Origin: Octopus vulgaris
Taxonomy: Eukaryota
NCBI GenBank assembly: GCA_951406725.2
Contig: OX597822.1
Coordinates: 22,878,001 to 22,942,000, forward strand
Direction: 5' to 3'
Length of the DNA: 64,000 nt
A program made the translations under genes and the position numbers. The notes beneath the pieces are model-generated. The model saw only the letters and a program-made list of their open reading frames with translations, did no database searches and was not told where the DNA came from. Within the stretch, counting starts at the first letter, position 1; every line of letters begins with the position of its first letter. This document shows positions 7,690 through 62,847 of the stretch, in pieces.

Positions 7690-7872
7690 AGTTAATCCAA
7701 ACAGGAAAACACAATGAAGCGAGGATGTGGAACAAGTATAGTGTTATTGGACGCTCAGGAAAGAAAGAAAGAAGGAGGATTTTAACGTTTTGAGCGGAGC
7801 TCTTCGTCAGAAACATAGGAAAAGGAAAGATCGAAGGAAGGGAAGACAGAGGAAAAAAATCGCCAACGATAC
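7690..7872 (-). mobile_element. Third copy of the ~190-bp hammerhead-bearing element, within (TA)n
   Basis: Reverse complement matches 22604-22790; motif at 7781-7813 with GAAA mutated to AAAA. Confidence 0.75.
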
Positions 7873-9375: not shown

Positions 9376-12300
9376 ATCATCATCGTTTAGCATCCGCTTT
9401 CCATACTGGCATGGGTTGGACGGTGCAGCTGGGGTCTGGGAAGCCAGAAGGCTGCACCAGGCCCAGTCTGATCTGGCAATGTTTCTACGGCTGGATGCCC
9501 TTCCTAACGCCAACCACTCCATGAGTGTAGTGGGTGCTTTTTACGTGCCACCTGCACAGGTGCCAGACAAGTCTAGCAAACAGCCACGGTCAGATGGTGC
9601 TTTTTATGTGCCACCGGCACGTAGGCCAGGCGAGGCTGGCAACAGCCACGATTGGATGGTGCTTTTTACGTGCCACCGGCACGGAAGCCGGTCAGGGCGG
9701 CACTGGCAACGGCCACGTTTGGATGGTTCTCTTATGTGCCACCAGCACTGAATCACAATGACAATTTCCATTCATGTTGATCGATTTTTGATTTTGTCAT
9801 TTTTTGATTTTCACTTGCCTTAACAGGTCTTCGCAAGTAGGGTTTTGTGTCCCAAGAAGGAAAGGTATGCATAAGTGGACTGAGGCCATGGGTGATGGTC
9901 TCACTTGTCCTGCCGGGTCTTCTCACGCACAGCATACTTCCAAAGTTCTTGGTCTCTAGTCATTTCCTCGGTGAGACCTAAAGTTCGAAGGTCGTGCTTC
10001 ACCACCACATCCCAGGTTTTCCTGGGTCTGCCTCTTCCACAGATTCCCTCAACAGCTAGGGTGTGGCACTTTTTCACACAACTATCTTCATCCATTCTCG
10101 CCACATGGCCATACCAGCGCAAACGTCTCTCTTGCACACCACAACTGATGCTTCTTAGGTCCAGCTTTTCTCTCAAGGTACTTACACTCTGCCGAGTATG
10201 AGTACTGACATTACACATCCATCGGAGCATACTGGCTTCATTTCTTGCGAGCTTACGCATATCCTCAGCAGTCACGGCCCATATAGCATGGCTGTTCGTA
10301 CACAAGCATCATACAGTCTACCTTTTACTCTGAGCGAGAGGCCTTTTGTCCCTAGCAGAGGCAAGAACTCTCTGAACTTTGCCCAAGATATTCTTACTCT
10401 AGCAGTTACACTTTCAACACACCCGCCCCCGCTACTGACTTGGTCACCAAGGTAACGGAAGCTATCAACTATTTCTAGTTTTTCTCCCTGGAAAGTGACG
10501 GAAATTGGTCTCAGAGCATTTTCAGTGTTTATTGCTCCTGAGCATCTGCCACATACAAAAACTATCTTCCTAGTTAGCCTTCCCTTGACGTTGCTGCACC
10601 TCTTGTGTGTCCATAGCTTACACTTGGTGCATCTTATAGAGTTTCTACCTACGCCTTTCCTACAGATCAAGCAAGGCCATCTACCTGAAGGCGTTTGTGA
10701 CTTGTCTACCTTCCTACTTATTAAGGACTTTGGTTTTAGCTAGGTTGACTCTAAGGCCCTTCGATTCTAATCCTTGCTTCCACACCTGAAACTTCTCCTC
10801 CAGTTCTGATAGTGACTCAGCAATTAGAGCAAGGTCATCAGCATAGAGGAGCTCCCAGGGGCATCCTGTCTTGAATTCCTCCGTTATTGCCTGGAGGACT
10901 AGGATAAATAGGAGGGGGCTGAGGGCTGAACCTTGGTGGACCCCTACCTCTACCCGGAATTCTTCACTGTACTTGTAGCCAACCCTCACCTTACTAGCAG
11001 TGTCCCTGTACATGGCTTGCACAGCTCTCACTAACCATTCATCTATCCCTAGTTTCCTCATTGACCACCAGATAAGGGATCAGGGGACCCTGTCGAAAGC
11101 TTTCTCCATGTCAACGAAAGCCAGGTACAGGGGCTTATCTTTGGCTAGATATTTCTCCTGCAGCTTTCTTACCAGGAATATGGCATCAGTGGTGCTTTTC
11201 CCTGGCACGAATCCAAACTGCATCTCATCTAAACTAACTCTCTCTCTAATTAGTTGGGCTATGACCCTCTCCATAACCTTCATTACCTGATCCAACAGCT
11301 TGATACCTCTGTAATTATTTGTATCTAGGGCGTCACCTTTACCTTTGTAGCAGTTGACTATTATGCTGCTACACCAGTCATTGGCTTTGACTCCTTCGTA
11401 TATTACCTGGTTAACTATATGGGTGACTAGGCTATAGCCGACACTACCAGATATTTTGAGCATCTCTGCAGTAATTCCTGATGTGCCTGGGGCTTTCCCT
11501 GTCTTCATGCTTCTAATTGCCTCAATTACCAAGGAACTGTCAACTCGGATAGCTGGTCCCTCTGTTGGGTCGACATTCGGCAGACTCTCTTTATCCCATT
11601 CATTTTCTTCATTCAGCAACCTTTCATAGTGGCGTCTCCACACCTCTCTCTTTGCATCCTTATTTAGCGCAAGTGAACCATCATCCATGCAAACACATTT
11701 CTCTCCTACAACATCAAGATTCTCTCTCACACACTGTCTTGCAACGCAAAATACCTCAAGTCTTTGGTCCTCACAGCGCAGAACATTGGCAAATTTTTTC
11801 TTATCTGCTTCCCCTCTGGCTAAATAAACCTGTCTCCTAGCTTCTCTTTTGGCAGTCTGATACAATTCCCTGCGACCCTCATTTTTCCAGTCCTTCCAAG
11901 CCTGTCTCTTTTCTCTAATAGCCCTGTCTACAACATTGTTCCACCACCACGTTATTCTAGGTCGAGAGGGGGCTTTGCACCAGCCACAGATCTGGTCAGT
12001 GGCTCTCAGCAGGTTGTCCCTTAGAAACGTCCAGTTGTCTTCTATCCCCTTCTACTTTGTCAAAGGCTTCAAGTAATACGTCCCTAAATCTCTGTCCATT
12101 TGCAGGATCTTTAAGCTTCCAGATCCTTCTTCTCCATATTGGTCGTCTTCTGGTCGTCCTCTTAGTCCTGATCCTAAAGTCACTAACTACCAGTCTATGT
12201 TGTGGGGTACATTCTTTGCCTGGGAGGGTTTTGGCATTTATAAGCAGCCATCTTTCCCTTTTCCTGGCAAGGATGTAGTCAATTTGGCTGGTATGTCGAC

Positions 12301-13559
12301 CCGATCGGTAGGTGACTAGGTGGCTGGTAGGTTTCCTGAAGTTAGTGTTGCAAACCATGAGATCATTTGTGTCGCAGAACTCCAGTTGCCTGGTTCCCTC
12401 CTCGTTGCGAGAACCATAGCCATAGCCTCCATGTACACCATGGAAGCCCCCAGCATGTTTTGCAACATGCCCATTGAAATCGCCAGCCACAAAGAGAAGG
12501 TCTCTGTCGTTCGTCAACGAGGTAGTCTGTAGTAAGGCATCATAGAATTGGTCTTTCTGTCCATCGGGTAGCCCTGGCTGAGGGGCATAGGCCGATATAA
12601 TGGTTGCTAATCCATGATGAAGCACTATTCTAATCTTAAGTATTCTGTCACTTACTCTGATTACCTCAAGTACCTTATCTACCAATTTTTCAGCGAGAAG
12701 TAAACCCATGCCTCCAAACCCGTCAGTGTTTCCTGCCCAGAAAATCTTGTACCTGTGTCCTTTGCCTGTGAGGAACCTAGCAGAACCGCCTCTCCACCTT
12801 ACTTCTTGGATGCAACATATATCAACATGTCTCCGTTCAAGCATCTCAACAATCTCACCAGACCTACCTTTCAGTGTGCCTATGTTGAGAGTGCCAACCT
12901 TGAGGGTGTGGAAGGTATGGGCCCTAGAGGCCCTGGGACAGGGAGCAGTGGCGTCATGTACCTGAAAAGAAAGCTCACATTTGGCAGAATTCATAAGCAA
13001 AGCAATGATCTTAAGTTCAACCTGCTACACTACACTATCATGTTTTGCGGCGTATGGTCACTACCTTATATAGTAGGGGTGGTGTTGGCTTAAGGCCTTT
13101 AGGTGTTCATGGAAGAAAAGCAAAGGAAGACAAGATGAGATAAGGACTTCAGGTACAGGTGGAGGGGGTGGGAGGGTGGGCGCCACCGCGCACTATGAAC
13201 GATGGAGTAGGAATTTAAGCGACAGAAAGACTGATAGATGAGGGAGAAAGACAAGATTTGAGACGAAATGCTTTGTGCTCGTGTGAATAAGTTTCTATGA
13301 GTGAAGGCATATGTTGTGGAGAAATGCTTGAGCTAGCATTTGAGACGAAAGACAACGACAATAAGAAAGAGGAAACAATAAGGTTTTATGGTGATAATAC
13401 TCGCAAAAAACAATGAAAGGAGGAACAAGTCGAAATCTTAAAAATATCTTAGCTGCTATTTTTAATCCTGAGGTTCGTGTTTCGTGTGTTACAGCCAGGG
13501 GTATGGAAGTAAGAATAGAAAGGGTCAAGCCGCGTGCATTGGTTTTTATAGGGGAGGGA
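9376..13559 (-). mobile_element. Near full-length RTE-clade LINE, inactivated
   Basis: APE endonuclease (TLNIGTL, CIQEVRW, SAYAPQ, GDFNGHV, QIDYIL; 11996-13000); RT (NYRGIKLL, QFGF.PGKST.DAIF, VDMEKAFD, VHQGSALSP.LF, LYADDL); RTE C-terminus (LRWYGHV.RM, GRGRPRKTW); (GAT)n tail at ~9376; one nonsense codon and three frameshifts; similar ~50-bp TA-rich flanks that may be a TSD. Confidence 0.95.
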
Positions 13560-13919: not shown

Positions 13920-13969
<50 letters not shown>

Positions 13970-14371
13970 AATTGAGATAGGGGTTGTAAATGCAACCCTC
14001 CATGGGATAACATATATCCAATATATTGCTAGTGAAGTACCCAACAAAGTTAATACATAAATGTTAAGAATTGCGATACAATTAATTCATTTATTGTATT
14101 ATATGGGCAAAGGTAAAATGTTTTACCACAAATTCATAATACAAAATAAGAAAATGGAGAAATACATCGAAATCAAATATCAATTACCAGATAATACTCA
14201 ATCACATACTTTATTAAACCACCACATAAGAAACTATAAGGTTAAACATAATAATGTTGGGTAAAACAGTGTACATGAAGGAGTGTACATAAAATAGTAA
14301 TATTATACAATAAGTAGAATACGTATAATAGAAAATAAATATAAGTACACATAAATATAAATATAGACTAT

Positions 14372-14498
14372 ATCTTACAGCTGTTTCGGCCATGTAGATA
14401 AGCATGTCTCATTTAACTTATATTAGCCATTTATGGTAGGTCAATATGTAGTTATAAATGAGATATTTACAAAAACATCCTAAGGCCTCTTCGGAGAT
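14372..14498 (-). ncRNA. Hammerhead-like motif, inverted copy
   Basis: minus strand: atct CCGAAGA ggcc [92 nt] ggcc GAAA cagctg TA agat. Confidence 0.7.
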
Positions 14499-15164
14499 TA
14501 CAAATTAGATTACATACATACTTATATAGGTGTGGGTACATACCCATAATAAAACATATACATATACATATGAGTGCATATACTCATACTCCTATACATA
14601 ATGATATAAATAATATAAATTAATAAACATACACATGCTCCACATTCAATGTCCCAGTTTTTCAACTTAATGTTGTGATAATTACAATGTAGAAAAACAT
14701 ACACATATTAATACCTAAATGCAGATATAGAGAGTCAAGATTGGTATTGTAATACTATTGTGACTATATTGCTAATAATGGAATTTATGTATTATTTCTC
14801 TAGTATTAGTGTTATTAATAATAATATGAATGATGATATTGGTAGCATTAGTGGTATCGACAAGGATAATGATGCTAACATTAATGACATTTTGGAAATT
14901 AATAAGAACTAATAGAATGTAATCTTGACTCTCTATATCTGCATTTAGGTATTAATATGTGTATGTTTTTCTAGATTGTAATTATCACAACATTAAGTTG
15001 AAAAACTGTAACAGTGAATGTGGAGCATATGTATGTTTATTAATTTATATTATTTATATCAATATGTATAGGAGTATGAGTATATGCACTCATATGTATA
15101 TGTATATGTTTTATTATGGGTATGTACCCACACCTATATAAGTATGTATGTAATCTAATTTGTA

Positions 15165-15291
15165 ATCTCCGAAGAGGCCTTAGGATGTTTTTGTAAATGT
15201 CTCATTTATAACTACATATTGACCTACCATAAATGGCTGATATAAGTTAAATGAGGCATGCTTATCTACATGGCCGAAACAGTTGTAAGAT
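15165..15291 (+). ncRNA. Type I hammerhead ribozyme-like motif (CCGAAGA core, extended stem II)
   Basis: atct CCGAAGA ggcc [92 nt] ggcc GAAA cagttg TA agat. Confidence 0.7.
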
Positions 15292-15619
15292 ATAGTCTAT
15301 ATTTATATTTATGTGTACTTATATTTATTTTCTATTATATGTATTCTACTTATTGTATAAGATTACTATTTTATGTACACTCCTTCATGTACACTGTTTT
15401 ACCCAACATTATTATGTTTAACCTTATAGTTTCTTATGTGGTGGTTTAATAAAGTATGTGATTGAGTATTATCTGGTAATTGATATTTGATTTGGGTGTA
15501 TTTCTCAATTTTCTTATTTTTATATATATATATATGTGTGTGTGTGTGTTTGTGTATGTATGTATATATATATATGTATATATGCATATATATATGTATG
15601 CATATACATATATGTGTGT

Positions 15620-15703
<84 letters not shown>

Positions 15704-17024
15704 TAACAAGGTAGTCGGAATGCTGGATGATTATATATATTTTCATTTACATTTTTAGCACTTTCTTCCATTATGAGATTCATAAAAAAAGTGGTTTACA
15801 GTCAGTTTGCTTTGTCTTTTTATATAAAATCAAAACTGATGATGTTTTAGAAAGGGAGAGAGGGTGGGGAACGAATTAGAAAGGAAGGTGCAGGTGTGAG
15901 GGAGGAGGAGAAAGTGGGAGATAGTGAAGGCAGAGAAGAGAAAAGAAAGTAGAATGAGTGTTTTGTGTGGTTTGTGAAGGAATGGAAAAGAAAGAAAAAA
16001 GTTTGAGAGAAAGGGGAAGGTAAAGGAGGCATGGCTTTTGTATCAGTGTGGACATTGTTGGTTTTTTCCTTTTGGGAGGGGAAGAAACCAAAAACCTTTA
16101 AAGTCACAACTTTGGAACAAGCTTCTGAATCAATGCAAGCATGTTTATTGGAAGAGCATTCATTGCAACAATATAGCTAACACATACCAAAATTGGCGAA
16201 GCAAGGAGAACCCAATCCTCCCCAGGAAATTTCTTATTAAAGAAATAAAAGGTGAAGCACTGGAAGAAACTATGATATATGTGAACATAGCACTATGCTG
16301 TCTGGAAGTAGAAATATCTCTTCTCCAAGCACGAAAAGTATGGCAGGAAAAGAAGGTCCCAACCACTGATACAATCATATTTGCCGAAATCTCTGAAAGA
16401 AATGACAACCAGAATTTAGAAAAGCTGCAACAACTATGGAAACAAGACAATAAACAAGAAGAAGAATGTGGGGAAAAAAACAGGATTGGTTCACTAACTG
16501 TGGAAAAAACTATGGAGAAAAATCCATAATGAAAACAAAACCAGCACAACAAAAAAAAATATATTAAAATCAAAAAATAACACAAACACCGACCCCAGAG
16601 GATTGAAACAAGAATATCGGATCCCCAGACATCCAAAAACATATGCAGAAAATAACTCCAACTTATCTCAAATACAGATTAGAAACCTGTACTCTACGAT
16701 AGCAACCCTTCATACTGTGATTAACAAATACACAGAATATAAAAAAAACAACCATCAACTAAATATTCTAGATGGAGGAACACATGGGAAGAAAGACAAG
16801 CAAAATACAGACAACCATTAACTCATAATACTGAATGACTTAGAGGGATGAACACATAGGAAGAAAGACAAGTGGGAAACTATAATATAAAAATCTTAAT
16901 GAAAACTCAAGAAACCTATGATATACAACCACCATTCCCACATGGCCCAATAAACATAGAAGATTGGAGGAAGACAACTACTATGGAAATATATACAGGC
17001 AACATGAACTGTTCCCTCACCTAC

Positions 17025-18124
17025 AAGGAAACCTGAACCCCAGAAATAGAAATTGGAAACATAACAATACAACTCCTTTTTTTAGGGAGAAAATGCTACA
17101 ACTATGCTCCAAACCCAATACAACAGAAGTTCCTAATGAACCCACAAAACACATAGACCCTAAAATTATAAATTTATCAAATAGAGACCTCAACAAAAAT
17201 GAAATGAGCCCCCTATTAAAAGGTTACAAATTTACTCAACACCCACTCTGAATCTCATAGAGCTAAAAACCAATATTGAGAACTTCAACCATCACCTCCG
17301 CATTATAGAATTCTTTGATAATAAGAAAGTAGAGGTTGAATTAATCATAAAAAAAAATCTCATTCCACTCCTTACAAGGTGGGCGACAAACACCTAGATA
17401 CATATATATAAACAATCTTGAAATACCCTCTCAGTACCTGTAAATGCAAACAGCCTTCGTGAAGGAGAAAAGGAAGCTTTACAAAGACTAAAGAACGACA
17501 ATTTAATCATCCTTAAGGAAGCCGACAAGGGTGGGGTGATAATAATCATTGATACAGACTACAACAAAGGAAACAAAGGAAACCTGAACCCCAGAAATAG
17601 AAATTGGAAACATAACAATACAACTCCTTTTTTTAGGGAGAAAATGCTACAACTATGCTCCAAACCCAATACAACAGAAGTTCCTAATGAACCCACAAAA
17701 CACATAGACCCTAAAATTATAAATTTATCAAATAGAGACCTCAACAAAAATGAAATGAGCCCCCTATTAAAAGGTTACAAATTTACTCAACACCCACTCT
17801 GAATCTCATAGAGCTAAAAACCAATATTGAGAACTTCAACCATCACCTCCGCATTATAGAATTCTTTGATAATAAGAAAGTAGAGGTTGAATTAATCATA
17901 AAAAAAAAATCTCATTCCACTCCTTACAAGGTGGGTGACAAACACCTAGATACATATATATAAACAATCTTGAAATACCCTCTCAGTACCTGTAAATGCA
18001 AACAGCCTTCGTGAAGGAGAAAAGGAAGCTTTACAAAGACTAAAGAACGACAATTTAATCATCCTTAAGGAAGCCGACAAGGGTGGGGTGATAATAATCA
18101 TTGATACAGACTACAACAAAGAAA
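17025..18124 (+). repeat. ~551-bp near-identical tandem duplication inside the PLE RT
   Basis: Identical peptides in ORFs 16964-17251 and 17536-17802 (offset 551). Confidence 0.95.
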
Positions 18125-18723
18125 AAATACTAGAAATTTTAACAGATCAAACATACTATAAAGAAGAATCAAAACACCCAGAAAAAGCAACACTGAATAA
18201 AATCAGAACATTAATTAATGAATACCAGGATTCCTTCACAGACAAAGAAAAAGACTATATATGCAACTCCATAACCAAAGAGAGCACTTACTACAGATTG
18301 CCCAAAATCCACAAAAGTTCTGAGATACAGAGGGCCTAAATGAACAGTGGAGCTACTATGTAAAAATACAAAGACAGACCTCAAAATGAGACCAATAGTT
18401 GCTGGGCCCCAAGCCCCAAACAACAACGTAGTCACGTCTTTAACATACTCCTCAAACCCTTATGCCCATTAATACCCAGCTATATACAGGATGACATGGA
18501 CTTTCTCAAACACATCCCAACTATTGTCCCAGAAGGTACTATACTTGCAAATTTTGACGTCACTAACCTTTATACCAACATACCTCATACCTTGAGCTTG
18601 GAGGCAGTCAAACACTGGGTAGAGAGACACAGAAGATGTATAGATGACTGTTTCAAAACAGACTTCATTACCAAAGCCATTTGTTTAGTACTAGAAGAAA
18701 ACACCTTCAGATTTATTACAAAA

Positions 18724-19294
18724 CTAGCAGTATCGCCCAGCATTGCTCGGGTTTGTAAGGGAAATAACTATATAAGCATTTTTAGAGAGTTATAGCCAAA
18801 AATAGCAAAAAAAAATGCATTAAAAATGGAAAAAAAATTATGGTAAATTTTTTTTTTTAATCGTTGACTCATTGTAGACATTTTCTGTTTTGGTGTCTTC
18901 AATCCATGAAGTCGTTGTTCTAAAAGAACGCTGGTCTCCTTGACAACGCTTTACGACGTTGATTTCTTTACACTCCCTTCCCCACAGCTTCACGAGGGAG
19001 GGAAGAAGGGGAAGAAGCAAACACAGGTGCAGGTGTTTGAGCGTGGACGCCAACTCCGCCGCCATCGACACACAATGCATTTTATGCATTAAAATGGAAT
19101 AAAAAATGATGTTAAATTATTTTTAAAATCGTAGACTCATCGTAGACGCGCGCTAATAGCCAGACGGGCTCGATATTAATCACGACTATAAGATACCCGA
19201 ATTTGGTTAAACTGCACCACAAAATGTGGGAGGAGTTAGGAATCTAAATGGAAGGGGACAGACACTCACACAACTACAGTTTTATATATATAGA
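18724..19294 (-). mobile_element. Non-autonomous Helitron nested in the PLE RT
   Basis: Minus strand starts TC and ends CTAG after a GC-rich hairpin; inserted between A and T with no TSD; flanks rejoin as the RT segment ...ENTFRF/IY.QLKGMAMG. Confidence 0.85.
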
Positions 19295-20008
19295 TATACT
19301 GACAGTTAAAGGGTATGGCTATGGGTACAAAATTTGCACCTTCATATGCCAACTTAGTCATAGGTTACTTAGAAGGTAAACTTTACAAGGAAGTATGAAA
19401 AATCTTTGATCACAACTTCAAGGAAAACATTATGAAGAAGTGGAAACGCTACCTCCATGACTGCTTCATTTTTTAGGATAGACCAAAAGAAGACCTACAA
19501 ACATTTCACAACATCCTCAACATACTGCACCCATCTATCAAATTCCCAACAAAAACCCAGCTACAATGAACTACCATTCCTAGACATTCACATCAAAATA
19601 CAATTTCAATGTTACAACAGGCATATTTTATAAAAAAACGGACACACACCAATATTTAAATTTCTACTCTTGCCACCCCTCACATCAAAAAGAACATCCC
19701 ATGCAGTGTGGCAAGACACATCTGCACCATAGTAATTGACCTACAAATACACCAAATTAGACTTGATGAACTCAAAAACTTCCTACAAGAACAAAATTAC
19801 CCTGTGAAAGTAATAAATAATGAAATCTCAAAAGCGATGAAATTAGACATCACACAACTAAGAACTCTAAAAGAAAAAAAAGCAAGGAACATGCTTTTCC
19901 ATTTATTAATACACACAACCGTGGAGTAACCAATATTTTCCACATTATACAATCAAACCTACTAATACTCTTACAGGGACCCAAAATGAGAAACCTGATA
20001 GATAAATG

Positions 20009-20970
20009 CTACCTACAAAATAGTAAACGCCATGTAACTTGAACCAGAACTTCTTTTTTTGTAAGGCAGACTTCGAACTTGTCTGCATGATTCAGAGCAT
20101 CTGGAGGGCAATATGTAGTACATGTAACTACATTGAGTTGTCTTGTATATACAATTGGTGTGTCACATACTGAATCTGAATGTGACAAAAGGACCTGGGG
20201 TGTAAGGTCTTCATGGATGTACATAGCAACTCCACCATGACTCCTTTCTTTTCTTTCAGTCCTTACTATGACATACTGTGGTATGTGTATTTCTGCATTT
20301 GCTATATCTGGTTTCAGGTGTGTTTCCATAAGTTCTATGCATAAGGCTTGATTGCATGTAACAAGGTCTCTCAGGAAAGGAATTTTTGTCTTGTTATTAA
20401 GTGTTACCAGTCCTCTGATATTCAGTAAGAGCACCGATGTGATGTCTGTGTTGTTTCCAGTGGTATTCACCTTGAGTCCATTTGCTGTGATGGTCTTGTG
20501 TATTGGGGATAGTCCCATCTATGAGATTGATGTAGCTAGGTCAGTTGCTGTACAATCTTTTGTGCCATACACAAAAACGATTGTTGTTCAACAGCTGCCT
20601 GTTCAACAACATGTTGATAGAACTGGTTTGTAGCATGCACTACTTCTGCATATTTCAGTTTTAGGGCAGATAGTACATGATCCTTTCCTTTTGGCAGATG
20701 GTTTCCACCCAGGGTCTTTGGGTGTGCAAAATGGCAGCTTGCACCTCCCTCTCAATGCCAGCAGAAACCTTTCAAGTAGAAATTTAGAATTTACACATGT
20801 GTGCTGTCTATTTTTATCCTTTTTGCTGTTTGGGCAGTCAGACTTGCTTCTTTCTTTGGTTGTTTGGTCTTTTGTTCTTGCACCTTTTGGTTAGTCTTTC
20901 TTGGCACTTTCACCTCCTCGATTTTCCACTTTGATGGTGGTAGAGGCACTTGCACTTGGGTTTTCTTTCC
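20009..20970 (-). mobile_element. 5' fragment of a CR1/L2-group LINE (APE endonuclease and decayed upstream region)
   Basis: LLNIRGL...ETHL...R..R..GGVAMYI...Y.PP endonuclease motifs in ORF 20009-20518. Confidence 0.8.
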
Positions 20971-21464
20971 TGGTATATATATATGCACACACACACACAC
21001 ACACACACAGCATCCAAGTTTGCCAGTTTTATCCAGTGTCAGTGAAAAACCAAAGATGTTAGTTTCTCATTGATGGATATGGGTATAAATTATTAAAATA
21101 ATAGAAAAAGAAAACAGAGAAACTAACATATAGACATCAATTTATTTGAAAATACATTCAATTCTGTACAATATCAAATTCCTTGCTCCTGCAGCTGTTT
21201 CTATGCCCAATTAATTCAATTTTAGGAACTGATAGAAAGAAGCTACATTCCTGTGTAGCTTCTTTCTATCAAATTCTTCCCCTGATGGAATGCCCAATTA
21301 ACAATATTCAAAATGAAAATTTAATTTAATTTCTCAAATTGAATTGGTTGGGCATGGAAATAATTTTGGTGCAATGGGTTTGATATAGTTCAGAATTGAA
21401 TATGTTCTAATAAATTAATGTCTATATATTAAATTTTCCATTTTCTTTTTCTTTTTCTCATATA

Positions 21465-22425
21465 TAATACAAAATAAGAAAATGGAGAAACACATCCAAA
21501 TCAAATATCAACTACCAGATAATACCCAATCACATACTTTATTAAACCACTATATAAGAAACTTTAAGGTCAAACATAATAATATAGAACAAAGCAGTGT
21601 ACATAAAGGAGTAATATGATACAACAAGTACAATATGTATAAGAGAATATAAATATAAATAAATATAAATATAAGTATAAACTATATCTTACAGCTGTTT
21701 CGGCCATGCAGATAAGTATGTCTCATTTTACTTATATTAGCCATGTGTGGTAGGTCAATATGTAGTTATAAATGAGACATTTACAAAAATATCCTAAGGC
21801 CTCTTCGGAGATTATGAAATACAAACCAAATTACATATACACTCATATAAGTGTGGGTACATACCCATAATAAATCATATACATATACATATGAGTGCAT
21901 ATACTCATACTCCTATACATATACATAATAACATAAATAATATAAATCAGTAAACATACATATGTTCCATATTCAATGTTACAGTTTTTCAACTTAATAT
22001 TATGATATTACAATGTAGAAAACATACACATATTAATACCCAAATGCAGATATACAGATTCAAGAGTACATTATATTAATTTACAAAATGTCATTAATGT
22101 TAACATCATTACTATTATCATTACCACTAAAGCTACCAATATTATTATTCCTATTATTAATAACACTAATACTAGCAAAACAATATATAGATCACATTAT
22201 TAGCAATATAATAGCAAAACCAAGGACCACAATAGTACTACAGTACCATGCAAAGCATTAAATATCTGCATATACATACAAAATAAGAAATAAAAGCAAT
22301 CGGTTTACATGGTATTAAGTTCTGCAGGTGTATAGATGTACATACGAGTGCAAATTTATAATTTCAATTGTGACACAGTTGATATTTGATTTGGATGTAT
22401 TTCTCCATTTTCTTATTTTGTATAT
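21465..22425 (-). repeat. Third, more diverged copy of the pseudo-LTR with a short inverted end fragment (22380-22425)
   Basis: Direct match to 14139-14742 plus reverse complement of spacer 14743-14920. Confidence 0.85.
21686..21812 (-). ncRNA. Hammerhead-like motif, third copy
   Basis: Same core and stems conserved despite divergent flanks. Confidence 0.7.
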
Positions 22426-22603
22426 ATTATATATATATATATGCATATTTTAAAATTCTGTATTCATATAGAGTCTGACAAGCTGTCCACAAGGCTGCGA
22501 AACCTTTAGTAACTTTATATAAAATTTTGTTGCAATAATTACTGCTCTATTTTTTAGAGTGTGCTTCTTTCTATGTTTTTTTTATTAACTATATATATAT
22601 CAT

Positions 22604-23007
22604 TGGCGATTTTCTTTCTCTGTCTTCCCTTCCTTGGACCTTTCCTTTTTCTATGTTTCTGACGAAGAGCTCCACTTGAAACGTTAAATCCTCCTTCTTT
22701 CTTTCCTTTCCTGAGCGTCCAATAACACTATACTTGTTCCACATCCTCGTGTTGTTGTGTTTTCTCTTTGTTCAAGTTTGGATTAACTATATATATACAA
22801 ATATACATACGGATCATTGGCGATTTTTTTCCTCCGTTTTCCTTTTCTCTTGAACTTTCATCCGTCTCTAGCTTCTGAAGAAGAGCTATGCTTGAAATGT
22901 AAAACTACCTTTCTTTCCTTCCCTGAGTGTCTACTAAAACTTTGCATGTACCATGTCCTCTCCTTGTTTTTTTCTTGTCTTTTCCTCATTTTTTTTTTTT
23001 TTGAGAT

Positions 23008-29153: not shown

Positions 29154-30022
29154 ATACAAAATTAAGAGGAATGACCACTAAAGTGGACACCTAATGACGT
29201 CAAATCGCCATTATCATGAAGAATGTGTTCTCAAGAAAAATTTCAGCAAAATGCCAACATGTAAAAATGAGTAAGACAAATGAAACTATACAAAATAAAA
29301 AACAATTACCTACGTACCGATGGTTTCACTTGTTAATGTCTATGTATGCAAACATGCAGATATCTGCAAGATCGTCAGCGTAGTCTGTCTCTTACAAAAC
29401 ACACAATTTCCAGAACTAGATACAGAATGCTCAACTGAAATCGAGTATGTATAAAGTTCTACAAATTATATTTGGGTGTATTTTTCAAATGTCTTCACTT
29501 TGGCATGCTGAGGCTGGCAATTACTCTGCAGTTAATAAATTTCAGTAGCCAATTTACCGGTTAGAGAACATTTTTTATTTAAAATTAATTAATAAGGGTA
29601 GAAATTGATATTAATCAATTAAAACCAGTGGCTTAGCATATTAAAAAAAGTCCGAAGATTAAAGATTGTGTTACATACAAAATTAAGAGGAATGACCACT
29701 AATGTGGACACCTAATATGCTGGTGGCACATGAAAAGCACCATCCAAATGTGGTCAATGCCAGTGCCCCCTGACTGTCTCCCATGCTAGTGGCACATAAA
29801 AAACACCCAGTACACTCTCAGAGTGGTTGGTGTTAGGAAGGGCATTCAGCTGTTGAAACCATACCAGATCAGATTGGAGCCTGGTGCAGCCTCAGTTAAA
29901 CTGTCCAGCCTATGCCATCATAGAAAGCAGCCATTAAACGATGATGATGATGATATATGATGTTGGATGCAATATATATTGACCATCTGAAAGACTTAGT
30001 CTTTTTCTTGTATTCTTTACAG

Positions 30023-36274: not shown

Positions 36275-37433
36275 ATATACTAGGTGACCAAGTCAGCAGC
36301 GGGGGCGGGTGTGCTGAAAGTGTAACTGCTAGAGTAAGAATAGCTTGGGCAAAGTTCAGAGAGCTCTTACCTCTGCTGGTGACAAAAGGCCTCTCGCACA
36401 GAGTGAAAGGCAGACTATGATGCGTGTGTACGAACAGCCATGCTACATGGCAGTGAAACATGGGCCGTGACTGCTGAGGATATGCGTAAGCTCGCAAGAA
36501 ATGAAGCCAGTATGCTCCGATGGATGTGTAATGTCAGTACTCATACTCGGCAGAGTGTAAGTACCTTGAGAGAAAAGCTGGACCTAAGAAGCATCAGTTG
36601 TGGTGTGCAAGAGAGACGTTTGCGCTGGTATGGTCATGTGGCGAGAATGGATGAAGATAGTTGTGTGAAAAAGTGCCACACCCTAGCGGTTGAGGGAACC
36701 TGTGGAAGAGGCAGACCCAGGAAAACCTGGGACGAGGTGGTGAAGCACGACCTTCGAACTTTAGGTCTCACTGAGGAAATGACTAGAGACCGAGTCCTCT
36801 GGAAGTGTGCTGTGCGCGAGAAGACCTGGCAGGACAAGTGAGTCCATAACCCGTGGCCTTCTACATGGGATGGAGCCAGCCTACGTATGCATACCTTCCC
36901 TTCTTGGGACACAAAACTCTACTTGTGAAGACCTGTTGAGGCAAGTGAGGATCAGAATCGAAATCGATCAATGGAAATTGCAGATGTGTTACCAGTGCCG
37001 GTGGCATGTCAAAACTCTACTTGTGAAGACCCGTTGAGGCAAGTGAGGATCAGAATGGAAATCGATCAATGGAAATTGCAGATGTGTTACCAGTGCCGGT
37101 GGCATGTAAGAGAACCTTCCGTTTCGCGACCGTTGCCAGCACCGCCCCGTTTCGTGTCCGTTGCCAGCCTTGCCTGGCCCTCGTGCCGGTGGCACATAAA
37201 AAGCACCATCCGTTCGTGGCCGTTTGCCAGCTCTGTCTGGCACCTGTGCGGGTGGCACGTAAAAAGCACCCACTACACTCACGGAGTGGTTGGCGTTAGG
37301 AAGGGCATCCAGCCGTAGAAACACTGCCAGATTTGACTGGGCCTGATGAAGCCTTCTGGCTTCACAGACCCCAGTAGAACCGTCCAACCCATGCTAGCAT
37401 GGAAAACGGACGCTAAACGATGATGATGATGAT
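36275..37433 (+). mobile_element. 5'-truncated copy of the same RTE LINE family (TMEM67 intron 5)
   Basis: MLHGSETWAVTAEDMRKLARNEASMLRW...GRGRPRKTW is nearly identical to 9901-10450; same 3' UTR and (GAT)n tail. Confidence 0.95.
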
Positions 37434-42500: not shown

Positions 42501-43573
42501 AAAGTTCAAGAAAAGCACGTTCAAGTGACTGGAAGTGGGGACAGAAAAAGTGGGGTCTTTTTAAGGCAAGAAGTGTGATAATGGTGTGTGTGTGTATGTG
42601 TGCATGTGGTAGTATCTGAGTGCATGTGTGTTTGTGTTTATGTGGTACTGCAGACAGTTTAGCAGCAGTAGTTATGTAGTTGTGATTTTGTTATGAGTTC
42701 TTGAGAATCAAGGCACATGGACTTGTAGGATGCCAGAAATGGCAAGGTATGATAACATAGAGCTCATATTGAAATAAACAACTTGGAATACGTCAAATGT
42801 TGGTAGGATACTATAGACAGGCGAAGTGATGTTAACACTTTGGGTATGCATCATTACTCCAAGTGAAACGATGAGAGGTTCTGATGAAGGATTTATTTAA
42901 ACAGTCACCTGAGGAGGCACATTTTACATTTTGGATGTATGATAATGATTGCACATCACCTCACCAATCTACTAAATGTGTAAAAATGTGTTGAAACAAT
43001 TGTAGTGATTTTAAGTAAAGAATGTCGCTCATACCATCTATCATTTATCCAGTTGTATAAATTGTATGGAAATTGTGAAATTCTTGATATATATCCAGTA
43101 GCAGGAATATTTCTACTGTATGATGACATCAGGTAGCCAATAACTATGGATGAGCTTTGCATAGCATACTACATACTTATTTAACTGTATATGTATATAT
43201 ACACACACACATTCTTTTATTCTTTTACTTGTTTCAGTCATTTGCCTGCAGTCATGCTGGAGCACCACCTTGAGTGGTTTTAGCCGATCAAATCGACCCC
43301 AGGACTTACTTTTTAAGCCAACACACCAACACTGGTTGTGAAGCAGTGACGGGTGGGACAAACAGACACAAATACACATATATAGATATATACATATATA
43401 TATGTTGGGCTTTTTCCAGTTTCCATCTATCAAATTCTCTCACGAGGCTTTGGTCAACCTGAAGCTACAGTAGAAGACACTTGCCCAAGGTGCCACTCAG
43501 TAGGACTGAACTCAGAACCATGTGGTCTGAAAGCAAGCTTCTTACCATTCAGCCACACCTGCGCATATGTACG

Positions 43574-60280: not shown

Positions 60281-60910
60281 CATCATCGTCGTTTAGCGTC
60301 CGCTTTCCAAGCTGGCATGGGTTGGACGGCTCAAATATATAAAAGGGTTACTTACCTTCTAATTTTTACATTATCCTGAATCATTTCTCATTTTATAGGT
60401 GCAGGCATAACTGTGTGGCTAAGAAGTTAGTTTTGTAATCTTGGGTTCAATCCCACCATGTGGCACTTTGGTCAAATGCCTTCTGCTTTAGCCTCGGTCT
60501 GGCCAAAGCCTTGGGAATTGATTTGGTAGATGGAAACTGTAAGGAGCCTCTGTGTGTGTGTGTGTACTTTTGCTTTGACATCATGTGATGGTTGTAAATG
60601 AACATCACTTATACAAGCAGTGTTGTTTGTTCCCAGACTTCAATGAAAAACATGTCTGGCTGTGGGGTAAATATTAGCTTAGAAACAGGTGAGGAATGGT
60701 GATAGGAAATTGCATCAAGCCATCAAAAATCTGCCCCCTCCCAAATTCCATCTGACCCATGCAATCATGGAAAAGTGGATGTTAAATGATGATTTTTGGT
60801 CTATCATATTCTTTCTGTTATTACATCAGGTAATATGATAATATGTGTATTTTTTTGGATGGTTACATAGAAACAATACTCTAGCAAAGAATATTTGTCT
60901 CCTTTTTCAG

Positions 60911-61165
60911 ATAATATTCAAATCTGAATATCTACAAGATGAAACTGGTATTGAAAACAGCATCAATATAGCTTTTGGAACATTGAGTGTCTTTGCAATA
61001 ATCTACGCTGGTTTTAATACATGGGCATGGTCAAAGAGATCGGCACGCATTTCTATAGACTTTGCCACATTGGTTAACCTGTTTCTTAACATGTGTGCTT
61101 CACTTGGTAGTGTCTTCTTCTTTACAATACTTGGCATTGGTATATATTTTCTTCTCTTCTTCAAA
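60911..61165 (+). CDS. TMEM67: TMEM67 exon 14 (first two transmembrane helices); gene continues beyond the window
   Basis: IIFKSEY...IAFGTLSVFA...WSKRS...IDFATLVNLF...GIYFLLFFK (cf. 'GLYWLIFFK'); AAA|gtaagt. Confidence 0.95.
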
Positions 61166-61237
61166 GTAAGTAAAACAAATTTTTTTCTTTCCTTTTTTGT
61201 GATGCATGAGAAATTTATTGTCAGTGGCGAGGAAATA

Positions 61238-62847
61238 TTGGGTCATCCCATAAATTGAGACCCCCTTCAGTCATGACTGACCGTGGGATTGCACCTAGAA
61301 AGTTACCCTCCCAGGCACAAGTCAAGGCAAGGTTGTTTATGGAAGACCAGCAGTTACCCATGCATACCAGCCTCCCCTCTCCATGCCACCAGTGTTATCT
61401 AAGGGAAAGGCAACAGCAGATACAGCTTGGCACCTGTGACATCGCTACTCATTTCTATAGCTGAGTGAACTGGAGCAACGTGAAATAAAGTGTCTTGCTC
61501 AAGAACACAACACGCAGCCCAGTCCGGGATTCGAACTCACAACCTCACGATCGTAAGCTCGACGCTCTGACCACTGAGCCATGTGCCTTCACCATCCCAT
61601 AAATAATGTGTTTTTTTATACTTTTATTTTTCAAAATTAAGATAAAGTTCTTTTTTAATCTAAAATATACTCTTCTTCATTTTCTACAATGCTATTCCAT
61701 CTATCTGGTAGGCTTGCAAGGCCTCTCTTTCAAAATTCACTTGTCTGTTATGAAAAATACTCCTCCAGTATTGTTCTGACCTTGCCTACAGAATTCATAT
61801 TTTTTCTGTCCAAATGATTTTGAAGACTGGAATAAATGATAATCAGATGGGGCAATGTCTGGCAAATATGGTGAGCTGAGGCATCATTTCCCATTGAAAC
61901 TGCTCCAGCCATTGGAATGTCATCCTTGCTGTATGTGGCTGAGCATTATCCTGATGGAAGAACACCTTTTGTCTTGAAACCAAAGATGGTCGTTTTTCTT
62001 CTACACTGACTTAAGCTGCTCTCAGTAGATCTTCTTTGTTATCGTTTGGTTTGGATTTAAAAGTTAAGGTGGACTAAACCTTTTATATCCCGCCAAACAG
62101 ATAACAACACCTTATGTGGATGAAGACCTTCTTTAGCCTGGGGTGCCAGTGTTTCTCCTTTCCCTACCCATTGTCTTTGGCACTTGATATTTTTACAGAA
62201 AGCCCATTTCTTGTCACCAGTCACTATGTAGTCCAAAACAGGTTCATTCATGAGACATGACAGCAAAGAAGAGCACACATTCACTCTCTGCATGCGATTA
62301 GACTTGGAAAGTTTGTGAGGAACCCATTGACTCAATTTGCTGACTTTTCTGATGGCACACAGGTGATGATGAATGGTTAAATGACCAAATCCAAGCTTCT
62401 CTGCTAGTTTCTCAACACTTATGATAGGATTTTGTTCTACCAGAGTTTGCAGGACGTCCTTGTCAAGCTTTACAGATCTTCCAGGACGAGGCTCATCTAG
62501 GCTCTAGTTTCCGGCTTAGAATTTCTGGAACCACTGTTGACACTGGCTTACACTTATTGTCTGATCCCCGTATACTGTGTTAATATTCCTTACATTTTCT
62601 GTTGCATTGTTGCTTTTATTGAACTCAAAGCAAAATATGCCAAATATGCTCTTTTGTCACTTCCATAGCTTTGAAAAAAATAACTGTTAAAATCGAACTG
62701 TACTCTTCAAAACTTGCACTAAGAATAAGGACAATATAAAATCACTACCTGCTTTTATAGCATGTTGATACAGGTAGTTTATCCCATTCCCCTCCGACTT
62801 TTAGTTCATGCAATTGAAAAAATTACATTCTTTATGGGATGACCCAA
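61238..62847 (-). mobile_element. Decayed mariner transposon with TIRs, interrupted by a SINE
   Basis: TA-flanked TIRs ttgggtcatcccataaa / tttatgggatgacccaa; WVPHKL and IVTGDKKW transposase motifs; about 1.26 kb without the SINE. Confidence 0.92.
61256..61592 (-). mobile_element. tRNA-derived SINE inserted in the mariner TIR
   Basis: A/B boxes on minus strand (tggctcagtgg; gttcgaatcc); 12-bp TSD catcccataaat at 61244-61255 and 61593-61604. Confidence 0.9.

Follow-up and report, generated by a model that had tools for sequence, protein, structure and literature searches.

What is a hammerhead-like motif with an altered core doing in an octopus genome, and which element carries it? We analysed a stretch of 64,000 nucleotides of Octopus vulgaris DNA (GCA_951406725.2, contig OX597822.1, positions 22,878,001 to 22,942,000, forward strand), hereafter the window. 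A first-pass annotation reported in it three motifs of 127 nt, and all three are present. As that annotation proposed, they carry a hammerhead motif with a long structured stem II in pseudo long terminal repeats (pLTRs); the motif is of type I, and the pLTRs are those of a Penelope-like element (PLE). We consider it probable that this is a selected hammerhead of a Hydra-clade PLE with an extended helix II. Judged from its sequence, it would be a slow cutter that depends on a dimer or on a protein. Statements taken from PMC8557442, PMC4209133, PMC3088659, PMC9608096 and PMC11167929 refer to the parts of those papers drawn on here.

Copy 1 lies at 14372..14498 (minus strand; core 14494-14488, predicted cut after 14376). 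Copy 2 is at 15165..15291 (plus strand; core 15169-15175, predicted cut after 15287) and copy 3 at 21686..21812 (minus strand; core 21808-21802, predicted cut after 21690). They read ATCT, CCGAAGA, GGCC, 92 nt, GGCC, GAAA, CAGCTG, GTA and AGAT, with the palindrome broken to CAGTTG in copy 2, as annotated. The core residues C3 to H17 are present, except that U4 is C; sister subfamilies have U4. Helix I has 4 bp in this subfamily, and helix III consists of 2 bp plus the palindrome. With a strict type I descriptor in which CYGANGA and loops of at most 140 nt were allowed, these are the only three matches in the 64 kb. Standard models do miss the motif, as had been expected: none of the 120 Rfam covariance-model matches in the window at E<=5 is a hammerhead. 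The annotated 12-bp helix of the insertion (15197-15208 with 15248-15259 in copy 2) is near-complete, but in no copy exact as written: copy 1 pairs 11/12 (A.C), copy 2 12/12 with one U.G, and copy 3 11/12 (A.A). The annotation also claimed conservation from these copies. They are near-identical and recent, hence uninformative on this point. Folding of the whole 127 nt is uninformative too (z of -1.25, -1.25 and -2.24).

The pattern CYGANGAGGCC N70-100 GGCCGAAAC has 948 exact matches in the genome, and its reversed control has none. A first look gave 1,681 motif candidates. The CCGAAGA core has 593 matches, with two that look unrelated among the first 100 listed, and an anchor downstream of the hammerhead has 4,004. 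Walking upstream through long copies, we reached an open reading frame (ORF) beyond a non-coding stretch of about 2.1 kb. A reverse transcriptase (RT) search gave copies with open frames of 908-962 aa. The element consists of a 5' pLTR, an ORF that spans about 950 aa and contains RT and GIY-YIG-type motifs, a 3' untranslated region (UTR) of about 2.1 kb and a 3' pLTR. The locus L131 shows this layout, as an inverted 5'-truncated piece followed by a 508-nt 5' pLTR, the ORF, the 3' UTR and the 3' pLTR. Its two hammerheads are on one strand and 5,604 nt apart, which gives an element of about 5.6 kb. In L127, a window-type motif (CCGAAGA, 92 nt, GUA) lies downstream of a broken ORF; over 458 aa, this ORF is 85% identical to the one of 955 aa that is intact in L129. 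So, the CCGA subfamily is linked to an ORF through L127. The hallmarks of PLEs are found: partial-tandem pLTRs (L131), inverted 5'-truncated copies (L131 and a pair in the window) and heavy 5' truncation.

The protein of L129 contains RWR (46), DKT (147), CNCRNKNKC (817), CSLC (915) and CIH (943), in addition to YRDD and VVY..YIG motifs. The pattern G.K[FY] for GxKF/Y has no match in it. Pfam gave no matches in the four element ORFs searched. Nevertheless, an element ORF aligns by BLASTP to a Pfam-positive PLE protein (RT, E 1e-5; endonuclease, E 0.001), and Atlas feature matches score 0.93-0.98, RVT_1 clusters included. The ORF is predicted to encode an RT with a C-terminal GIY-YIG endonuclease, as in PLEs. 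The Hydra clade is marked by DKT, a CxCX5C linker, CxxC, CxH, the lack of GxKF/Y and (TA)n targets (PMC8557442), and the copies of our element end at (TA)n. By these motifs, the element is assigned to the Hydra clade. Its unit length of 5.6 kb is due to Asn-rich inserts and the long 3' UTR.

The three window copies are dead 5'-truncated pLTR fragments of this element. The first piece (13924..14742, minus strand) has the long 3' terminus. It is 95% identical over 838 nt to the natural copy L102, ends at (TA)n and begins about 266 nt upstream of the hammerhead core. The second (14742..15520, plus strand) has the short 3' terminus and meets the first in a 5'-to-5' junction. Both form an inverted pair with 600-nt arms that are 98% complementary. 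Copies 1 and 2 are unable to dimerize in cis because they lie on opposite strands. The third piece (21464..22375, minus strand) is separate and more diverged, with 83% identity to L102 and to L115, and retains about 570 nt upstream of the core. We also observed that copies end preferentially at two 3' termini, which are about 215 nt from each other (window 14139 and 13924) and are each followed by (TA)n. This difference exceeds the 30-40-nt tail described for PLEs. Among near-full-length elements, the 5' pLTR starts (the L127:7340 region and L131:2364) differ as well: one lies within stem III, about 11 nt before the cut site, and a second precedes the core by 15 nt.

Other carriers were rejected. 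The decayed RT between copies 2 and 3 matches a two-ORF family with other pLTRs (L081-type, 53-69% aa identity), and the 14742-15520 repeat occurs in none of 20 ten-kb loci of that family. The Hydra-clade ORF has no tblastn match in the window. A non-LTR retrozyme, made of short non-coding tandem units, does not fit, since each copy is the 3' end, of variable length, of an element that codes for protein. An adjacent RT-endonuclease fragment in L109 is on the opposite strand and from a different family; we judged it an unrelated insertion. Contigs under four organism labels (two runs guessed to be RNA, two untyped) cover the repeat at >=80% likeness. Because neither ends nor strand can be read from contigs, this says nothing about transcription or cleavage. 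Among the 40 differences listed of 74, position 15170 is absent.

Is the motif maintained, or is it a chance string in a young repeat? We recovered 148 distinct motif contexts from the collected loci. Subfamilies differ in position 4 (C/U), N7 (A/C), N17 (A/C) and arm length. To compare subfamilies, we let each subfamily or old copy contribute one representative, 12 in all. In them, 8 of the 10 catalytic positions are invariant (identity 0.967), and so is the whole palindrome (6/6, identity 1.0). The GGCC/GGCC helix has 6/8 invariant positions and helix I 4/8. The flanks show far fewer, with 1/36 on the 5' side (identity 0.35) and 2/36 on the 3' side (0.58). Apart from two core exceptions in single old copies, core variation is confined to the free positions N4, N7 and N17 (0.47-0.59). 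At N17 the changes are A to C only, and position 4 is only U or C.

The picture is different within subfamilies. In copies chosen by the downstream flank, core and flank changes are 2/154 and 33/1353 in subfamily A, 5/164 and 43/1246 in H, and 0/264 and 3/2447 in E, and decay is mostly at CpG. It is expected that dead copies decay equally in core and flanks. A core decaying as fast as its flanks across the family, part of the outcome by which the first-pass annotation would have dismissed a ribozyme, is thus seen within subfamilies but not between them, and the evidence for selection comes from the between-subfamily comparison only. One could argue from the pooled A and H counts (7/318 core against 76/2,599 flank sites) that a hammerhead-like string has been conserved through recency alone. 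We regard this as highly improbable. It is contradicted by the conservation between subfamilies, by compensatory changes, by the expected position in the pLTRs and by the motifs of sister families.

The compensatory changes are in the long insertion. The first-pass annotation described the 92 nt as a loop with its own helix. They rather form a long irregular extension of helix II, which we call the arm. Its length is typically 77-92 nt (74-104 nt among aligned representatives). In 18/18 copies folded, the arm is one long irregular hairpin, with z from -1.9 to -7.5. We studied covariation by pair counting over 26 aligned copies. Pairing is present in 91.2% of cells, compared with 29-46% in slid controls. 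Two-sided changes occur in 10/30 pairs, all in the arm, and the cells with such changes number 41 against 13.9 in shuffled data (0/500). RNAalifold independently recovers the arm, with 18 pairs, 8 of them with two-sided changes. Helix I is 79.8% paired family-wide and without covariation. The layout of the arm is shared across several families of differing sequence: a helix of 6-7 bp, a helix of 5 bp, an asymmetric internal loop and an apical hairpin.

Sister Hydra families, whose ORFs are about 40-51% identical over the RT, have arms of unrelated sequence with this same layout and CTGA cores. Their pLTRs contain the motif GAAAC-N4-GUH, in both pLTRs for L140-L144. We observed these families in L138-L144, L233, L234, L126 and L224, with open frames of 906-1,091 aa and 46-52-nt helix II arms in the pLTRs. 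Published Hydra hammerheads have short loops in this place (PMC8557442). Considering both facts, the long arm is a lineage trait, independent of the U4C change. In the literature searched, such a long covarying helix II was not found, although subscription papers and the supplements of PMC4209133 may hold variants with a long helix II or C4.

The arm might do more than stabilize the core. It could be an active specialized module that replaces the contact between loops 1 and 2 or gates cleavage, for instance by way of its proximal internal loop or as a binding site for the ORF protein, and the ribozyme would be fast under the right conditions. The single layout in spite of differing sequence and the concentration of covariation in the arm speak for this, and 5' ends of copies also cluster near the arm top (-68..-33 from the predicted cut, in 17/90 young copies). 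On the other hand, the arm ranges in length between 74 and 104 nt, and conservation of its unpaired part does not exceed that of the 3' flank (0.57 against 0.58). The folds lack a terminal loop 2 at the canonical distance; after 4-7 bp they open into an internal loop or bulge, and no loop 1 partner, or other tertiary partner, was identified in them. Therefore, we treat the active module as possible but doubtful, and keep the reading of a slow, conditional cutter with an extended helix II.

The U4C change has its own history. The CCGAAGA variant is real in the window copies, but it does not define the family, as older and younger subfamilies are CTGA with the same long arm. We built a tree of 29 copies from the sequence downstream of the core, with a midpoint root. 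It is ladder-like: CTGAC(G/A)A and CTGAAGA copies branch first, followed by subfamilies A, H, G and B with CCGAAGA. Subfamilies C, D and E, with CTGAAGA, are nested inside the CCGAAGA group (support 100/100). On this tree, one gain of U4C and one reversion at a CpG is likely as the simplest reading, and it depends on the root. The change from GUA to GUC arose in subfamily B. The youngest subfamily is E, which is full-length at 100% in 40/41 listed matches and accounts for most intact ORFs. We rejected CCGA as a decay product: CpG decay goes from C to T, and C4 is kept in 25/29 whole copies chosen by the downstream flank.

Such a change is already known as a tolerated natural variant. One study finds that U4C lowers activity considerably in vitro and yet supports viroid infectivity (PMC3088659). 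Another finds that self-cleavage is not affected by it and describes a further viroid-like RNA that has it (PMC9608096). In the Octopus vulgaris genome, two other repeats have CCGA cores as well. On the minus strand of L134, near position 9604 of the reversed locus, we observed another hammerhead with CCGATGA, an 11-nt loop and the same CAGCTG palindrome. Thus, U4C is likely recurrent in this genome.

Can a single copy cut itself? The first-pass annotation took the palindromic stem III to suggest dimeric activity. The segment is indeed suited to it: for its 12 nt, the monomer gives 0 kcal/mol and the dimer -13.1 (cofold), and the broken palindrome of copy 2 gives -5.4. This design is, however, already the published norm for metazoan PLE hammerheads (PMC4209133), and it is covered in a review (PMC6765202).

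If the element's RNA were cut, the 5' ends of copies could record it. We mapped the 5' ends in copies chosen blind to the hammerhead, namely the first 100 anchor matches and 90 young copies, with two insertions shared. Relative to the predicted cut, the young set has 0.04 ends per nt at -300..-144, 0.29 at -143..-113, 0.02 at -112..-69 and 0.47 at -68..-33. Closer to the cut, the density is 0.07 at -32..-2, 0 at -1..+1, 0.52 at +2..+22 and 0.09 at +23..+57. In the anchor set, 12 ends lie at +2..+22. Of 35 ends that fall between -32 and +57, 23 are at +2..+22. Truncation thus has a hot spot at the motif, suggesting that the RNA or complementary DNA (cDNA) is folded there. The sequence just past the cut is AT-rich. 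A second cluster of 5' truncations lies about 540-600 nt upstream of the cut in subfamily E and others (e.g., -541 to -571 in 5/30 E copies), and it marks perhaps another folded element.

Several observations weigh against a selected, cutting hammerhead. None of the 190 copies (100 + 90) has its 5' end at -1..+1 of the predicted cut, and 60/100 and 76/90 copies read through the hammerhead. Because most copies extend through the site, most templates were uncut at the 3' hammerhead. The pile-up at +2..+22 could equally come from RT stalling at the foot of the structure or from microhomology in AT-rich sequence. Moreover, the bins were set post hoc, and some ends belong to inverted partners. Stem I is weak, with a probability of the first pair <=0.27 in 16/18 copies, and the minimum free energy folds of the window copies differ from the active fold. 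In the youngest subfamily, helix II contains a C.U mismatch, and stem I contains U.U pairs. As for the covariation, relatedness of the copies inflates the counts, and the test for further pair types was non-significant (76/500). Finally, many copies were collected via core patterns, so their conservation is biased. The core is nevertheless kept in subfamily E and in the old copies L231 and L134, which were found through ORF searches.

These points could mean that the fold is kept as a non-catalytic RNA, a platform for protein binding or dimerization in the ribonucleoprotein. Cleavage would be vestigial, and U4C would represent a period of lost catalysis. The read-through of most copies, with none beginning exactly at the site, agrees with it. 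So do the degraded stem I of subfamilies B, C and E and the rise of 593 intact CCGA copies despite the considerably lower in vitro activity of U4C (PMC3088659). In the Anolis PLE, catalytic mutants had no effect on insertion in vitro (PMC11167929). Nevertheless, the catalytic residues are fixed and only the known free positions vary, with N17 changing just from A to C among representatives. Position 4 takes just U and C, the states reported to cleave, and full cores are kept in unrelated sister families. Hence, we think a vestigial ribozyme unlikely.

Under the preferred reading of a slow and conditional hammerhead, the RNA of the element would be cut slowly after GUA or GUC. Two hammerheads, from the 5' and 3' pLTRs of one tandem transcript or from two RNAs, would form an 8-bp stem III from their ACAGCUGU palindromes, probably assisted by the element's protein. 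We infer that two are required, because the monomer is unable to form stem III. The long arm likely lets G10.1-C11.1 fold first and stably in AU-rich RNA, presumably at the cost of the canonical contact between loops 1 and 2. Activity is likely low and not rate-limiting, so U4C could be tolerated through four amplifying subfamilies. After them, C4 likely reverted to U at a CpG.

The window and the collected loci contain other hammerheads and repeats. At 42903-43010 (plus strand), a fourth long-armed hammerhead belongs to a different, older repeat, with a 6-bp helix I, CTGAGGA, about 77 nt of helix II plus arm, and GAAACAATTGTA. This repeat has 489 genome candidates at 76-89% identity, and the motif was recovered by pattern in at least 7/12 loci. 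A type I hammerhead-like motif lies at 29305-29385 (minus strand): ACTACG, CTGACGA, a 34-nt loop, GAAACCATCGGTA and CGTAGG. A similar one with a 24-nt loop is in L130. A short repeat at 22598-22764 (plus strand) and 7705-7871 (minus strand) carries a minimal hammerhead, CYGACGA-N-GAGC...GCTC-GAAACGTW. Both window copies look degraded, and it is also present in L088, L090, L094 and L129, in CCGA and CTGA forms. At 15700-20080 (plus strand) there is a decayed two-ORF PLE (GxKF, DKG, CX4CxxC; Neptune-like) with a 551-nt internal duplication. Its young relatives (L081-L090) have a 557-aa ORF1 overlapping a 775-aa RT/GIY-YIG ORF, and 1-kb pLTRs. Their ORF1 has no Pfam match, and the descriptors used find no hammerhead in their pLTRs. 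The region 9883-13024 (minus strand) is what we take to be a decayed RTE-type LINE, by its AP endonuclease and RT frames, with more 3' fragments at 36400-36860. An open frame at 60842-61258 (plus strand) presumably resembles an exon of a host membrane protein, meckelin/TMEM67; if so, the window may be intronic.

The role of the hammerhead in PLE transposition is a question of interest, as it is nearly universal in canonical PLEs and weak in vitro. This family supplies young elements with intact ORFs and ordered natural ribozyme alleles for a side-by-side assay. A broader proposal is that the Hydra-clade PLEs here use a distinct long-armed hammerhead, whose helix II module gates dimer- or protein-dependent cleavage, shapes the RT stops and sets the sizes of thousands of truncated copies. 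We offer it as tentative, and doubt it more than we believe it. If true, the dated series CUGA/GUA, CCGA/GUA, CCGA/GUC and CUGA/GUC would be a natural allelic series on the ribozyme activity needed for PLE spread. Taken singly, neither the PLE context nor the dimer design nor U4C is new. New here are the link of the CCGA subfamily to an ORF, the probable gain and later loss of U4C, and the map of truncations. Thousands of these motifs are missed by Rfam and by length-limited descriptors (7-17 nt spacers, PMC8557442). Claims of hammerhead-less PLEs may thus need re-checking with descriptors open to CCGA and a long helix II.

Compared with the published Hydra-clade hammerheads (Craig et al. 2021, PMC8557442), our motif shares the type I fold near the 3' end, the tiny stem III and GAAAC..GUH. 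The elements share DKT, CxCX5C, CxxC, CxH and the insertion into (TA)n. However, in File S2 of that paper, 26/26 Hydra rows are CTGA with a loop 2 of 3-10 nt, unlike the octopus motif, where 74-104 nt separate the GGCC pairs. With 29-35 nt, loop 2 is longest in that file for Chlamys-type spike-moss elements. Published Hydra PLEs have RWK and tend to be shorter than 3 kb, whereas the octopus element is about 5.6 kb and has RWR. Hydra-1_Obim (2,507 bp, 8-nt loop 2) is a different family. With the metazoan PLE hammerheads (Cervera and De la Pena 2014, PMC4209133), our motif shares the pLTR location, the mass dispersal as truncated copies, the opposite-strand pairs 100-700 bp apart and the palindromic 15.2-16.2 region. 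Those cleave weakly and in a dimer-dependent manner, and have a longer-than-usual helix II; the octopus motif, known here from sequence, is likened to them. They differ in that their helix II has 6-8 bp, and the core variant described there is U3-A8, not C4. Anolis Poseidon PAc (PMC11167929) also has a pLTR hammerhead, uncut RNA as the main template and no read ends at the cut. It belongs to another PLE clade, the parts of that paper drawn on here do not mention a long arm, and its activity is measured, protein-assisted and dispensable in vitro. The viroid hammerheads of PLMVd and CtaHVd-LR1 (PMC3088659, PMC9608096) share the core substitution, and GUA triplets are natural there too. In viroids, U4C is a rare quasi-species variant. 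In the octopus PLE, it was fixed in the master copies and left at least about 590 intact copies before its likely reversion.

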